A DNA stretch of 64,000 bases from Deltaproteobacteria bacterium (GCA_016187835.1 JACPIY010000104.1:5327-69326); one strand, 5' to 3'; shown: positions 4,741 through 42,905, counted from the stretch's first letter. Numbers and translations: made by a program. The notes: a model not told the origin generated them from the letters alone.

Positions 4741-5409
4741 TTACTCTTGTACTCGCAACTTCTCTAACTCTTCTGCCGTCCAGGGAGTTGTACGATCGGA
4801 AGTCTCTTTACGAATTTTATCTACCATATCCGGTGTGATTTCTTCTGCTGAGTTTCCCCAGCTCGTTCTTTCATGTGTAAGGACAGCAGCAATCTCCTCA
4901 TTTGAAAGCTTTGATCCCCATTCGGGCATGACGTTGTTATACGTCGTCCCTCTTACTTCTATAGAACCCTGTAGGCCGTTAAGTACAATGCGAATTGGAG
5001 TCTCAGGATCTTTGAGCAACCAATCTGATCCCGCCAGTGGAGGAAATGCACCAGGCAAACCCTGACCATTAGATTGATGGCATGCAGCGCAAACACTTGC
5101 ATAAACATGTGCCCCATCTACTGTAGGTTTTGTTTCCCCAGGCTTTGAAACTGTCGTCACTGGAGCTGCAGTTTTTCCTTCTTCTAATAAATGAACATAA
5201 GGACCGAATGTTCCTCCATATCGCCCCAGGTAAAATCCTGCCCAAAAGATAAGGAGAACAGAAATAATCCAGAGCCACCAGGGAGGGGGTTCAAGCCCTT
5301 CTCTTGGCTCCGGCGGTTCACGAAAAGCCTGCCGATGAAGATCATAGATGTCGTGTTTTTCTTCCTCAGGACGAAATCGCCATTCGGATTCCGGTCTTTT
5401 GTCACTCAT
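4741..5409 (-). CDS. membrane-anchored monoheme c-type cytochrome (CcoP-like third subunit)
   Basis: 222 aa; one TM helix (WWLWIISVLLIFWAGFYLG); single CAACH heme-binding site with downstream Met; overlaps ccoO stop by 8 nt. Confidence 0.6.
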   Translation of the reverse strand: MSDKRPESEWRFRPEEEKHDIYDLHRQAFREPPEPREGLEPPPWWLWIISVLLIFWAGFYLGRYGGTFGPYVHLLEEGKTAAPVTTVSKPGETKPTVDGAHVYASVCAACHQSNGQGLPGAFPPLAGSDWLLKDPETPIRIVLNGLQGSIEVRGTTYNNVMPEWGSKLSNEEIAAVLTHERTSWGNSAEEITPDMVDKIRKETSDRTTPWTAEELEKLRVQE

Positions 5410-6019
5410 TATTATTCACTTTTTGCTCAATCGAGTAAGTATGGTTGAGACTCACGAGATAAGCCACCAAATCAAGGGCCTCGTGAGTTGCTATTATAAC
5501 CTTACCTTCAGGAGCGAATTCCTCTGGCACTGGAACAACCCGTTCTCCTTTTGCAGCATAAACTTCTTTTGAAAATACTTCATCTTCTTTGAAAAGCCAG
5601 GGATAGGGAGGCATAATCGAACCAGGAGAAGTTGCTCTTGGGTCGTAGAGGTGAATTAAGTGCCAGTCTTCGCTCGGCTGCCGTGCTGCGATGTTAAAAA
5701 GATCCGGGCCGGTTCTCATTGTCCCTAGTAGATGAGGCTTGTCATAGACATAATCTCCGGGTACCGATGGTCTTCCCCAGCCGCGCTTTTGGTCTGCTCC
5801 AAATCCCTCTGGACGGGTCTGCTGGCTGTGACAGTAAATGCAACCCTCGCGTATGTAGATGGCTCTTCCGCGAAGTTGCTGGTCTTTATAAGGTTTTAAC
5901 GCAGAAGCGGGTTTTATTTCACGTATTTGAAGACCTGGAATCATTGTCAAGCCTGCCCACCCCAGGAATAGAGTAGCCAGCACACCCAAAAAGAATATCG
6001 AGGCCCTAATGTACATCAT
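5402..6019 (-). CDS. ccoO: cbb3-type cytochrome c oxidase subunit II (monoheme CcoO)
   Basis: 205 aa; N-terminal TM; RGRAIYIREGCIYCHSQQTRP closely matches the CcoO heme c site; 4-nt overlap with ccoN. Confidence 0.85.
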   Translation of the reverse strand: MMYIRASIFFLGVLATLFLGWAGLTMIPGLQIREIKPASALKPYKDQQLRGRAIYIREGCIYCHSQQTRPEGFGADQKRGWGRPSVPGDYVYDKPHLLGTMRTGPDLFNIAARQPSEDWHLIHLYDPRATSPGSIMPPYPWLFKEDEVFSKEVYAAKGERVVPVPEEFAPEGKVIIATHEALDLVAYLVSLNHTYSIEQKVNNNE

Positions 6020-39971: not shown

Positions 39972-40047
39972 TGATGTTGGAGAGTGTAAATTGTTTTGAA
40001 ACGGGATTCAATCGCTTTACCAAGTCCTCTGGACTGCTCAGTCTGAT

Positions 40048-41529
40048 TTATTCCAACCACTCGCGGACGTATGGAAAGCCGACGGGTAAATTATCTATGA
40101 GCCGGGCTAGAGCACGAACCTTGCTGTTTTGTTCAAGGTCTAGGGGTTTGAGGATTTCTTCACGAGTAGGGATACTTTCTTTAGAAGGACCAGCCTGAAT
40201 TTCGTTAAGATAATGTAGGAACCAGAGGAGTATTCGCCTGGCCAGATTTCTGGCATTACGAAGGTGCCCCACATAAGTCTGCTCCTGAAATGGATTGCCG
40301 TGAACCAGATTACATCGAAAATCGTATAGCTCTTCGAACTGTTCCCTAATAGCTTTTCTTTCGTCCTCATCCTTTCCTAAGATATAGGCAACCCGCCGAG
40401 CTAATCGCTTCGTAACTCCCTTTCCTTTTTCTCCAAGAAGGGCCTCCAATACAGTAATATGCCATAACAACTGCTCCAGGCCTTTAGTGAAAAATGCTTT
40501 GACGAAATAGCCCAGAGGAATTTTGAGGAACGGTCTCTCATTTTCCATGGCTCTGAGGTTTTCAAGAAGATTCCCAGTGTGTTGGATAAAAGCTTTGAAT
40601 GAATCCGTTCCATCATTTTTAAGGTGGATATAAATCATGGGGCTCTCACCAATTTCCTCACCTGTCAAGGCATCAACAAATGGCTCTTTGCTCAACCTCA
40701 AAAGGTCAGGTGCTGCCCTTGGAGAATCGAGTAAGTTATCATCTATCATGAGAACAAAAGGGATACGAAATCCACGCCAACCTTTTTCCAATTCCTCTTC
40801 TTTATCAGTAGATAGCCCTTTCCACCAATCTGCTTGCCAATCAAAGAGGGTAAGATGTTGGAGAGTAGATTCAATAGCTTTAGGATATCTCGTGTATTCG
40901 ATGCTTACGCGATCTAGCTGACTCAGATCAAAAGGTAAATAAACCCAGCCTAACTTGGGAGTAGGGGCTAACTCTGTGAGGTAGACGAACCAGTAATCCT
41001 TTAGTTGCTCCACGTCAATATCAGCCCATGGATAAAAAACCTCGTTAACCTTATTTCTAAAAATTCCTCTCAGCTCATTTGCTGAGAACCGTCTAATCTG
41101 AAATGCCCCAAAGTCCATTGATTGCTCAGCGAATTGGACAAATTCCATTGGGGCAAGATAAGTGATCCGGATTTCTCGCTTTTGAAGGGCTTCACAATAG
41201 TTCTGTAATGCAGTATCGGCACTAGGAGGCTTATTTTTGAAGAGGTCAGAATAATACTCAGACCGACGGAAGAAATTCTTGACAGCTTGTTGCCACGCTG
41301 ATTCATTTTTACCGTGGTAGTCTCCCGAAAACGAAGAACGTGTTTCCGCCACTAATTGATGAAACTCAGCTTCGTTCTCCAATTCATCAACCAAGGTCCG
41401 CAGCTCCATTGCCTCATTCACATGCAGACGCAGCGTTCCCTTTGTCCTCACTTCTTCACTTCTTTTTTGAAGCTTTGATTGGACAGCATATATGTATCTG
41501 TGAAATGCCTGTTCCAGATCATCTGGCAT
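40048..41529 (-). CDS. uncharacterised 493-aa protein with C-terminal HEPN-like R-x4-HG motif; candidate defence/toxin effector
   Basis: No TM segment; C-terminal helical segment ...EQFEELYDFRCNLVHGNPFQEQTYVGHLRNARNLARR carries an Rx4H motif; N-terminal ~380 aa has no recognisable family; inside a toxin-antitoxin cluster. Confidence 0.6.
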   Translation of the reverse strand: MPDDLEQAFHRYIYAVQSKLQKRSEEVRTKGTLRLHVNEAMELRTLVDELENEAEFHQLVAETRSSFSGDYHGKNESAWQQAVKNFFRRSEYYSDLFKNKPPSADTALQNYCEALQKREIRITYLAPMEFVQFAEQSMDFGAFQIRRFSANELRGIFRNKVNEVFYPWADIDVEQLKDYWFVYLTELAPTPKLGWVYLPFDLSQLDRVSIEYTRYPKAIESTLQHLTLFDWQADWWKGLSTDKEEELEKGWRGFRIPFVLMIDDNLLDSPRAAPDLLRLSKEPFVDALTGEEIGESPMIYIHLKNDGTDSFKAFIQHTGNLLENLRAMENERPFLKIPLGYFVKAFFTKGLEQLLWHITVLEALLGEKGKGVTKRLARRVAYILGKDEDERKAIREQFEELYDFRCNLVHGNPFQEQTYVGHLRNARNLARRILLWFLHYLNEIQAGPSKESIPTREEILKPLDLEQNSKVRALARLIDNLPVGFPYVREWLE

Positions 41530-41728
41530 ATCTTTTCCTACCTCTAGACTCTGCGTTTGTGAAGTCTGCTAAAGGTGAATATTGGAATGTGGAGATTCCC
41601 ACATAATCGGTAAGTTCACGGTGAAGTAGAGTGAGAAATCTGAGAGCAGCAGGGCCAAGAGCCTTGTTTAAGGCTTCTACATCACTGATCATTATTTCTG
41701 TGTCATCCATTGCCTTTTTCTTATTCAT
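41519..41728 (-). CDS. hypothetical 69-aa protein, translationally coupled (11-nt overlap) to the downstream 493-aa gene; candidate antitoxin/partner
   Basis: ORF; start of the 493-aa gene overlaps its 3' end; basic C-terminus. Confidence 0.45.
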   Translation of the reverse strand: MNKKKAMDDTEIMISDVEALNKALGPAALRFLTLLHRELTDYVGISTFQYSPLADFTNAESRGRKRYAR

Positions 41729-41831
41729 CAGTGTACTCCTGTCTAATATAATCTACCGGATTCATAACTGTTATCTCGAGTTTCAATCGTAGTATAGAGA
41801 AGCTACAAATCCTGTGTTAGTCGAAGACCCC

Positions 41832-42065
41832 TCAAGCATACTCATAAAGAGGAATTGTCCTTGCAGGTTGGGTCGTTGTTCGTAGTAACTCTTCAATCCG
41901 ACGCACGGTCTCTGGCTTTAAGAGCACATCACCGCATACCGGACAGACTTCGGCTGGAACATGATCAATAACGATAATCTGTCCGCGATGCCGCACGGTA
42001 TGAACAATCTGTTGCTCTTCGTACTCGCCAGGGCACTCTTCAATACTGCACTTCATCTTTATCAC
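41832..42065 (-). CDS. YgiT-type zinc-finger protein (MqsA-like antitoxin N-domain family)
   Basis: 77 aa; two CxxC pairs (CSIEEC ... CPVCG) with the conserved spacing of YgiT-type zinc fingers; 4-nt overlap with upstream DUF4258 gene. Confidence 0.75.
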   Translation of the reverse strand: MIKMKCSIEECPGEYEEQQIVHTVRHRGQIIVIDHVPAEVCPVCGDVLLKPETVRRIEELLRTTTQPARTIPLYEYA

Positions 42066-42394
42066 CTCCTTTTACTAGGAGTCACCCACTTTGGTGGCTT
42101 GGGTTCATAAACCGTAATGATAATAAGTATCGGTTGTGCTGCCGTACACACAATGTGTAGAGGACGGTCATTCTGAGTAACACCGCTAACCAAACAACAG
42201 GCCCCTCGACGGTGTTCAGGATAGTTTTCCAAAATCTGTCCCGTAGCAATGGCTTGAAGAACTTCATCAAGCGTGATGCTCTTCTCAACCATCTCTTGCT
42301 GAGCATGTTGGGTGATGCGAATGTTCTCCCCCGTAGCCTGAGCATGTATCCGATCCAACACAGCTTCCAAATTGGTAACATCAAATTCACTCAT
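42062..42394 (-). CDS. DUF4258 domain protein (putative toxin)
   Basis: 110 aa; IRITQHAQQEMVEKSITLDEVLQAI matches the DUF4258 core; paired with the zinc-finger protein. Confidence 0.7.
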   Translation of the reverse strand: MSEFDVTNLEAVLDRIHAQATGENIRITQHAQQEMVEKSITLDEVLQAIATGQILENYPEHRRGACCLVSGVTQNDRPLHIVCTAAQPILIIITVYEPKPPKWVTPSKRR

Positions 42395-42432: not shown

Positions 42433-42615
42433 TCACGGCGTTTTACCACCATCCTCCACCTCAACGGGTATTGGCTCTAACAGGACTCTCCCAAAAGGGA
42501 GTTCTTTATTTTGCTGCTGGTAAGCTAAGACCATTGCACGCAGGGCGTCTTCAAGCATTTCGCGATATTCTTCTAAGTTTCTCCACTCTGTTATCACTTC
42601 CAGCCACGCTATCAC
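42433..42615 (-). CDS. hypothetical 60-aa protein between DUF2283 and DUF4258 genes
   Basis: ORF only; acidic, helical. Confidence 0.3.
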   Translation of the reverse strand: MIAWLEVITEWRNLEEYREMLEDALRAMVLAYQQQNKELPFGRVLLEPIPVEVEDGGKTP

Positions 42616-42689: not shown

Positions 42690-42905
42690 TTATACCGCTT
42701 CTGGTGAAACTTTAAATTCCACAGGCAATAGCCTCTCCAAGTTAATATGTTTGGAAGCATCTACAATCTCAATGCCTATAATTCTGTTATCTTCACCAAT
42801 ATCTAGCACGACATCATCAGAGACTCGTTTGTTAACAACTTGCTGTTTCTGGTCATCCAGACGAAGGTAAAGTAAATCTGTTTTAGCATTATAAAGGATT
42901 TGCAT
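42690..42905 (-). CDS. DUF2283 domain protein (putative antitoxin-like)
   Basis: 71 aa; YNAKTDLLYLRL ... IIGIEIVDASK matches the DUF2283 pattern. Confidence 0.7.
   Translation of the reverse strand: MQILYNAKTDLLYLRLDDQKQQVVNKRVSDDVVLDIGEDNRIIGIEIVDASKHINLERLLPVEFKVSPEAV

Follow-up and report, generated by a model that had tools for sequence, protein, structure and literature searches.

The window analysed here is a 64,000-nucleotide (nt) stretch of a Deltaproteobacteria bacterium genome (GCA_016187835.1, JACPIY010000104.1:5327-69326), and its minus strand encodes a protein of 493 amino acids (aa) which, on balance, is best read as a stand-alone, single-protein HEPN ribonuclease of a new family, carried as a solitary conflict or defence cassette. 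Judged by its sequence relatives, the gene is real and belongs to a sizeable unannotated family. It would have no obligate partner: an open reading frame (ORF) of 69 aa overlaps its start, and a first-pass annotation had taken the two for a toxin-antitoxin (TA) or abortive infection (Abi) module, but the small ORF appears to be a decaying fragment of another module rather than an antitoxin. The two ORFs, their 11-nt overlap and the motif RCNLVHG near the C-terminus of the larger protein were all confirmed by direct reading and translation.

At least 243 homologues of the 493-aa protein were recovered by a word-indexed search, nearly all of them full-length proteins of ~480-530 aa labelled 'hypothetical'. 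When 1.84 billion cluster representatives were searched exhaustively with a profile, 456 matched at E<=1e-30 and 973 at E<=1e-10; each of the best 150 spans the whole protein, so the full-length architecture is kept. The gene is under purifying selection, with a ratio of nonsynonymous to synonymous substitution rates (omega, dN/dS) of 0.23 against its 72%-identical orthologue in contig L024. As the first-pass annotation had supposed, no family could be assigned: searches of Pfam, NCBIfam, PADLOC and the PDB sequences (the last queried by phmmer and by profile searches) gave no match to the protein, and Foldseek found nothing significant in the PDB. Clustered at 50% identity, the family amounts to hundreds of clusters from Nitrospirota, Acidobacteriota, Desulfobacterota, Elusimicrobiota, Hydrogenedentes and Proteobacteria, and the genome loci lie in metagenome-assembled genomes of Nitrospirota, Acidobacteriota, Gammaproteobacteria, Binatia, Desulfobacterota and Hydrogenedentes. 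Its distribution over these many phyla is patchy and synteny is not conserved; a DNA-level search for a homologue in E. coli found none.

The C-terminal part of the protein, its last ~190 residues, is well supported as a HEPN domain by both the alignment and a confident AlphaFold2 model (predicted local distance difference test, pLDDT, 91.4; predicted template modelling score, pTM, 0.90). Among 103 aligned homologues with 38-76% identity the only invariant positions are P257, R379, R405, H410 and G411, and the last four are retained even by plasmid proteins just 24-27% identical to the 493-aa protein. For R405, H410 and G411 such invariance goes far beyond chance. In the model, the helix 388-410 terminates in R405...H410 and is followed by a loop (411-419) and the helix 420-446, which places the motif at the end of helix 3, the canonical HEPN position according to the layout given in PMC3710099. 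Thus, the HEPN-like Rx4HG motif in a helical context that the first-pass annotation had noticed is borne out, and the assignment rests on the invariance of the motif, its retention in the most distant relatives and its canonical place in the model. Two glutamates of the helix 350-365, E352 and E362, are conserved in >=90% of the alignment and are candidates for the acidic residue that HEPN domains conserve in helix 2 near the motif, and a short helix (372-384) bearing the invariant R379 is modelled as an insert between the helices 350-365 and 388-410. Three of the features by which membership of the HEPN superfamily is judged, namely a conserved Rx4-6H motif, the helix layout and structural similarity to solved HEPN domains, are present, and the invariant Rx4H argues for catalysis.

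Links to named HEPN families are faint. A few family members have weak matches to Csx1, CARF-HEPN, HEPN_Swt1 and HEPN_Apea in PADLOC and Pfam; in the PADLOC search of 39 members those to Csx1 and CARF-HEPN were faint only, at E 0.002-0.02. When a profile of the C-terminal domain was used to look for a link to a named HEPN family, it retrieved only fragments of the 493-aa family itself and two unannotated remote matches. For the N-terminal ~300 residues, Pfam, NCBIfam, PADLOC and the PDB contain no relative. Six shorter proteins (P0231, P0254, P0263, P0266, P0272 and P0279; 237-293 aa) match the C-terminal HEPN half only; the contigs that encode them are long (40 kb to 7 Mb), and the proteins may be split, truncated or HEPN-only versions and not fragments at contig ends.

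Among the characterised systems, ApeA appears by analogy to be the best working model for the family. In ApeA, N-terminal and Mid domains precede a HEPN domain at the C-terminus. A pocket that lies between the N-terminal domain and the HEPN domain binds deoxydinucleotides or senses phage RNA, and the protein's cleavage targets are tRNA anticodon loops or phage genomic RNA (10.64898/2026.01.26.701840; 10.64898/2026.03.20.713152). A decameric or dodecameric ring is also among the features described, along with the pocket and tRNA anticodon cleavage (10.64898/2026.01.26.701840). The 493-aa family resembles it in being a single protein of ~500-600 aa with a large N-terminal region of no known homology, a HEPN domain at the C-terminus and one Rx4H motif, in having no partner gene, which corresponds to the single-gene organisation of ApeA, and in occurring in restriction-modification (R-M) and defence neighbourhoods. 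With a single motif per protein, as in ApeA, it would have to dimerise. The ApeA models themselves (HEPN_Apea, ApeA_NTD1 and PADLOC ApeA) do not match the window protein; among the 39 members HEPN_Apea matches one, at E 0.067, and ApeA_NTD1 and PADLOC ApeA match none. Two members carry the JGI label 'Apea-like HEPN', which was not reproducible. The protein may work like an ApeA-type effector and is not demonstrably an ApeA.

Other single-protein and toxin-like HEPN systems fit less closely. DARNA/PD-T7-3 is a tRNase activated by single-stranded DNA that joins a HEPN domain with an Rx4H motif to a ~300-aa sensor domain (10.64898/2026.02.22.705581); its HEPN domain is N-terminal, whereas that of the 493-aa protein is C-terminal, and its sensor is all-helical and Pds5-like, unlike the N-terminal region described here, which is partly helical and partly alpha/beta. 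A search of the PADLOC systems, including PD-T7-3/DARNA and PD-T4-2, gave no match to the window protein at E<=1. An identity with HepT-MntA and other HEPN toxin-antitoxin pairs of type II/VII was rejected: these toxins are HEPN-only proteins of ~130 aa whose motif reads RX4HXY and whose gene has an MNT antitoxin gene as an obligatory neighbour, whereas the 493-aa protein is four times larger, its motif continues into G-N-P with no tyrosine at +2, and no MNT gene occurs in the window neighbourhood or recurs in the neighbour censuses. With PrrC and RloC it has in common a HEPN effector and, in a minority of the family, a position directly beside R-M-type methyltransferase-nucleases. A PrrC-type identity was rejected as well, since the protein lacks an ABC-ATPase domain and its R-M linkage is sporadic, non-orthologous and absent from the window. 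The 493-aa protein is best placed in a HEPN family of its own, new also in its N-terminal architecture.

A mechanism can be proposed on the precedent of ApeA and DARNA/PD-T7-3, the two experimentally characterised single-protein HEPN systems. Two copies of the protein would dimerise via their HEPN domains to create a composite active site, and the N-terminal region would hold the nuclease silent until a phage, plasmid or stress cue is sensed. The activated enzyme would cut RNA, either tRNA anticodon loops or mRNA, in a metal-independent reaction leaving 2',3'-cyclic phosphate ends, and the cleavage would stop translation and invader replication. The gene itself would move as a solitary cassette into variable spots, rich in conflict genes, of chromosomes and conjugative plasmids. 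That the N-terminal ~300 residues form a new infection- or stress-sensing module gating an RNase, and that the family is thus a new group of single-protein HEPN immune sensors, is a tentative proposal to which we would give somewhat less than an even chance.

Outside the window the gene keeps varied company. No partner family recurred among the 137 flanking ORFs surveyed at 17 genome loci, and the 107 immediate neighbour ORFs at 41 non-redundant metagenome loci matched 141 Pfam families, none of them more than twice. One locus has an integrase, a 1227-aa DUF559-helicase and VapBC nearby, another has DUF433, MazE-PIN and dCTP deaminase genes, and others have HigBA, HicB, DUF433/DUF5615 and ParDE-like genes; SIR2, DrmC-like PLD and PD-Lambda-4_A occur as singletons. 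The contig L035:1-12225 is a dense defence island, in which PLD-SNF2, AAA_21+RloB and a 1174-aa Eco57I/MmeI-type enzyme lie upstream of the HEPN homologue and an OLD-TOPRIM and UvrD (Gabija-like) pair lies downstream. At L033:1-8488 the HEPN homologue is immediately preceded by a 1336-aa Eco57I/MmeI-type enzyme; an SNF2 helicase, UPF0175 and bAvd are encoded upstream as well. Distant homologues were found on 28 plasmids, 19 of them conjugative, from Agrobacterium, Klebsiella, Serratia and others, with RES toxin, VapBC, restriction endonuclease, TrlF-type ATPase, integrase and transposase genes as neighbours. Klebsiella oxytoca pRHBSTW-00529_3 and a Serratia proteamaculans plasmid are two of the carriers. 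The suggestion that the locus is a conflict-system candidate is thus upheld in part, by the TA genes of the window and by TA, defence and mobile genes in many genomes, and is not upheld as a two-gene module.

The 69-aa ORF ends in ...R-Y-A-R-TGA with its stop codon at 41519-41521, and the ATG of the HEPN gene lies at 41527-41529. Its product has six homologues among 5.8 billion proteins, and the ORF stands beside a HEPN gene only in the window, in the identical Logan contig L023 and in the 72%-identical syntenic contig L024. By tblastn it was found at none of the 19 genome loci and none of the 39 non-redundant, full-length metagenome loci encoding the HEPN protein. The absence of the small gene beside homologues had been named in the first-pass annotation as evidence that would speak against a pair, and the neighbourhood comparison proposed there gave a partner that is not always adjacent, together with a motif that homologues keep. 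HEPN homologues with 67% and 64% identity are preceded by unrelated genes (233 aa and 124 aa) at gaps of 100-130 nt, and at the 39 metagenome loci the same-strand ORFs that end close to the HEPN start are heterogeneous and mostly spurious-looking.

The origin of the small ORF can be traced to a different module. Five other relatives (67-69 aa) have residues 1-46 in common with the window copy and differ at the C-terminus. The intact ones lie directly behind a gene for a 148-aa protein with a weak PIN match (E 0.003), which they overlap by 1-4 nt, and no HEPN gene is nearby (contexts L028-L032). They are thus paired with a PIN-like gene and not dedicated to a HEPN protein. By blastn, window positions 41783..41590 are 72% identical to L028 4898-5095 over 201 nt (E 8e-24), after which the homology ends; the relic consists of the last ~60 nt of the PIN-like gene and the first ~46 codons of its partner. 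In a comparison of the window with L024, omega is ~0.41 for codons 1-46 and ~0.95 from codon 47 to the end, the latter from few sites, and codons 1-46 are under strong long-term constraint relative to the L028 and L032 copies. In the simplest reading of these comparisons, the PIN-like/67-aa module has decayed: on one side its toxin gene has apparently gone, and on the other the module was truncated where the HEPN gene abuts it; the 69-aa protein probably derives from a TA-module component. Because the ORF is absent from other HEPN loci and its intact relatives belong to the PIN-like module, the 11-nt overlap is a lineage-specific junction scar and not a feature of the system. Overlapping ORFs in TA islands can mislead in this way, an apparent coupled pair being one module that abuts the wreck of another.

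It is accordingly very improbable that the two genes form a translationally coupled TA or Abi pair in which the small protein neutralises a HEPN toxin. The same-strand overlap is real and is retained in L024, the 69-aa ORF has its own Shine-Dalgarno sequence, its codons 1-46 evolve under constraint both between the two lineages and against L028 and L032, and a TA-module ancestry would itself be in keeping with an antitoxin. However, at none of the ~60 other non-redundant HEPN loci does one of its six homologues lie alongside, close HEPN homologues have unrelated upstream genes at a distance, the intact relatives accompany a PIN-like gene with no HEPN gene nearby, the ~55 nt of that gene's tail kept in the window point to decay, and the end of the ORF that gives rise to the overlap is non-homologous and evolves neutrally.

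An accessory role is unlikely, though somewhat less so: the protein could be a 'second-line' nuclease of the PrrC kind, held inactive by another defence system and freed when that system is disabled. Two divergent members lie 35-93 nt downstream of the large Eco57I/MmeI-type methyltransferase-nucleases of L033 and L035, with an SNF2 helicase upstream, a restriction endonuclease is encoded near the Serratia plasmid copy, and at least 16 HEPN clades are linked to R-M systems (PMC3710099). Against this, the two methyltransferases share only their catalytic core, at 26% identity, on which ground an orthologous methyltransferase-HEPN module was rejected, and R-M genes are missing from the surroundings of most loci, the window among them; no recurrent neighbour family was found. 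Equally doubtful is a housekeeping or stress-related nuclease of RNA processing or RNA repair, or a non-catalytic HEPN protein that binds a ligand. This would suit the RtcB RNA ligase genes that lie immediately downstream on the same strand at two unrelated loci, L036:8493-9989 (38-nt gap) and L017:4048-6112, the housekeeping neighbours at many other loci, the proximity of the window gene to priA with no terminator-like site in the 76 nt between them, and the absence of the family from phages. It is at odds with the patchy distribution and lack of conserved synteny, the occurrence on conjugative plasmids, the integrases and transposases alongside, the clear defence island of L035, the recombination mosaic at the window locus and the invariant Rx4H, which argues for catalysis; moreover, linkage to RtcB is equally expected for a toxin causing repairable damage. 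The RtcB linkage, in a small sample of two loci, may be a nuclease/repair pairing, which fits the resealable damage of HEPN type. In L017 the RtcB gene is accompanied by an archease-like ORF, and in L036 a PF09414 RNA ligase is encoded ~5.6 kb downstream of the HEPN homologue.

Several points weigh against the stand-alone HEPN ribonuclease in turn. The family was found on no phage genome and no viral contig, both of which were searched. Many of the 17 genome and 41 metagenome loci show only housekeeping or unannotated neighbours, and PADLOC matches close to HEPN homologues are sparse; for these reasons the association with defence islands is suggestive and not statistically secured. The residue that follows the motif arginine is S or C, whereas many catalytic HEPN families have N, D or H. 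In two diverged lineages the 69-aa ORF has kept its frame intact and a good Shine-Dalgarno sequence in front; its omega is ~0.4 N-terminally, and it may conceivably have a lineage-specific role. RNase activity, dimerisation, N-terminal sensing and a defence phenotype are, for the 493-aa protein, all predicted by analogy.

Compact immune modules that both sense and cut are emerging among single-protein HEPN effectors, ApeA and DARNA being examples, and they differ in sensor domain and trigger; if the reading of the 493-aa family as such an effector is true, it would add a sensor architecture without structural precedent. The family is common, as the 456 clusters at the strictest cutoff show, and because homologues sit on plasmids of culturable, genetically tractable bacteria (Klebsiella, Serratia and Agrobacterium), its trigger and RNA target are accessible to experiment. 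For specialists the finding may not be very surprising, since many HEPN families await study, yet it provides a clean, testable candidate.

The features of the window locus are collected in Table 1. The HEPN gene is followed by priA and preceded, on the same strand, by genes for an MqsA-like (YgiT/MqsA-type) zinc-finger protein, DUF4258, a 60-aa ORF, DUF2283, HicA and HicB. The annotated neighbours are those reported by the first-pass annotation, with E values of 3.9e-22 for DUF4258, 8.9e-12 for DUF2283, 3.3e-20 for HicA and 6.8e-8 for HicB; the zinc-finger match is weak (3.5e-4). The whole run from hicB through glnE lies on the minus strand, just 76 nt (39972-40047) separate the HEPN stop from the priA start, and no terminator-like hairpin was found between them, so that read-through from the HEPN gene into priA is possible. 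A promoter and terminator scan did not exceed the shuffled expectation, and nothing was inferred from it.

Table 1. Coordinates and main properties of the features at the HEPN locus of the window.
Feature	Position	Strand	Remarks
493-aa ORF, HEPN family member	40048..41529	-	Unannotated family: novel N-terminal region and C-terminal HEPN domain
N-terminal helical subdomain, residues 1-116	41182..41529	-	Six helices; conserved E51, F56, W79, R88, R89, Y93, F115
Alpha/beta subdomain, residues 117-303	40621..41181	-	Many conserved aromatics and prolines: Y124, P127, F143, W180, W231, F254, P257 (invariant), P270, P274
HEPN domain, residues 304-450	40180..40620	-	Helices 306-326, 333-347, 350-365, 372-384, 388-410, 420-446
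Catalytic-type motif R405-C-N-L-V-H410-G411 (Rx4HG)	40297..40317	-	From translation
Conserved C-terminal tail, residues 451-493, and stop codon	40048..40179	-	R456, D464, P482, F485, P486, W491
69-aa ORF, chimeric remnant	41519..41728	-	Codons 1-46 from the 67-aa gene of a PIN-like/67-aa module; codons 47-69 unrelated, running into the HEPN start
Purine-rich Shine-Dalgarno-like stretch GAGGTAGGA for the HEPN start codon	41533..41545	-	Inside the 3' end of the 69-aa ORF; direct reading
PIN-like module relic: 3' tail of the 148-aa gene and first ~46 codons of its 67-aa partner	41590..41783	-	blastn; remainder of the module missing
Recombination breakpoint relative to L024	41740..41760		Sliding identity and contrast in synonymous divergence (dS)
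DUF4258 gene and MqsA-like zinc-finger gene	41832-42394	-	4-nt overlap (42062-42065); toxin-first TA-like pair
60-aa ORF	42433-42615	-	Between the DUF4258 and DUF2283 genes; no family match; absent from the Logan contig gene calls; may be spurious or a small antitoxin-like gene
DUF2283 gene	42690-42905		Separate, upstream; DUF2283 is often the partner of DUF4258

Comparison of the window with L024 revealed a mosaic. Nucleotide identity is 96-99% over the DUF4258/MqsA-like block and the adjoining intergenic region, drops abruptly at ~41750 to 84-90%, and is down to 67-79% in the sliding comparison over the 3' half of the HEPN gene, which has a dS of 0.71 as against 0-0.06 for the upstream block. 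At the protein level the N-terminal 116 residues are 84% identical between the two and the HEPN domain 68%, whereas over the family as a whole the trend is opposite, with 40% identity in the N-terminal 116 residues and 52% in the HEPN domain. Because the gradient between the window and L024 runs against the family-wide constraint, recombination inside and beside the HEPN gene appears more likely than rate differences. The breakpoint and the fall in identity from 5' to 3' both point either to a TA block that was exchanged recently or to a recombination mosaic within the gene.

Some minor observations concern genes near distant members of the family. On the alphaproteobacterial plasmids L039:4493-7098, L040:4473-7092 and L041:3926-7089, abutting or overlapping genes for hypothetical proteins of ~190-200 aa precede a distant HEPN-like gene. 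These genes are common to the plasmids (71-72% identity), their order is rearranged, TrlF-family ATPases are encoded close by, and the set may be a lineage-specific multi-gene system. A three-gene operon was considered and rejected, as the upstream genes are rearranged and are absent from the subfamily of the window protein. At four loci a small antitoxin-like protein (...LPLAERRRRLAEQAE...WQGGDIV) is encoded ~0.1-1.5 kb from the HEPN homologue (L036:6702-6914, minus strand; L007:~5380-5575; L009:4014-4469; L010:717-1229, minus strand). Given that neither orientation nor spacing is constant, this protein is probably a further TA component and not a partner of the HEPN protein.

The module from which the 69-aa ORF descends was found as two genes at L028:4511-5160, L029:1619-2268 and L032:543-1192, where a gene for a 148-149-aa protein is followed by an overlapping one for a 67-aa protein. 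The larger proteins have a sub-threshold PIN signature (E 0.003-0.02). No family in any of the libraries covers the module, which is a candidate toxin-first TA pair.

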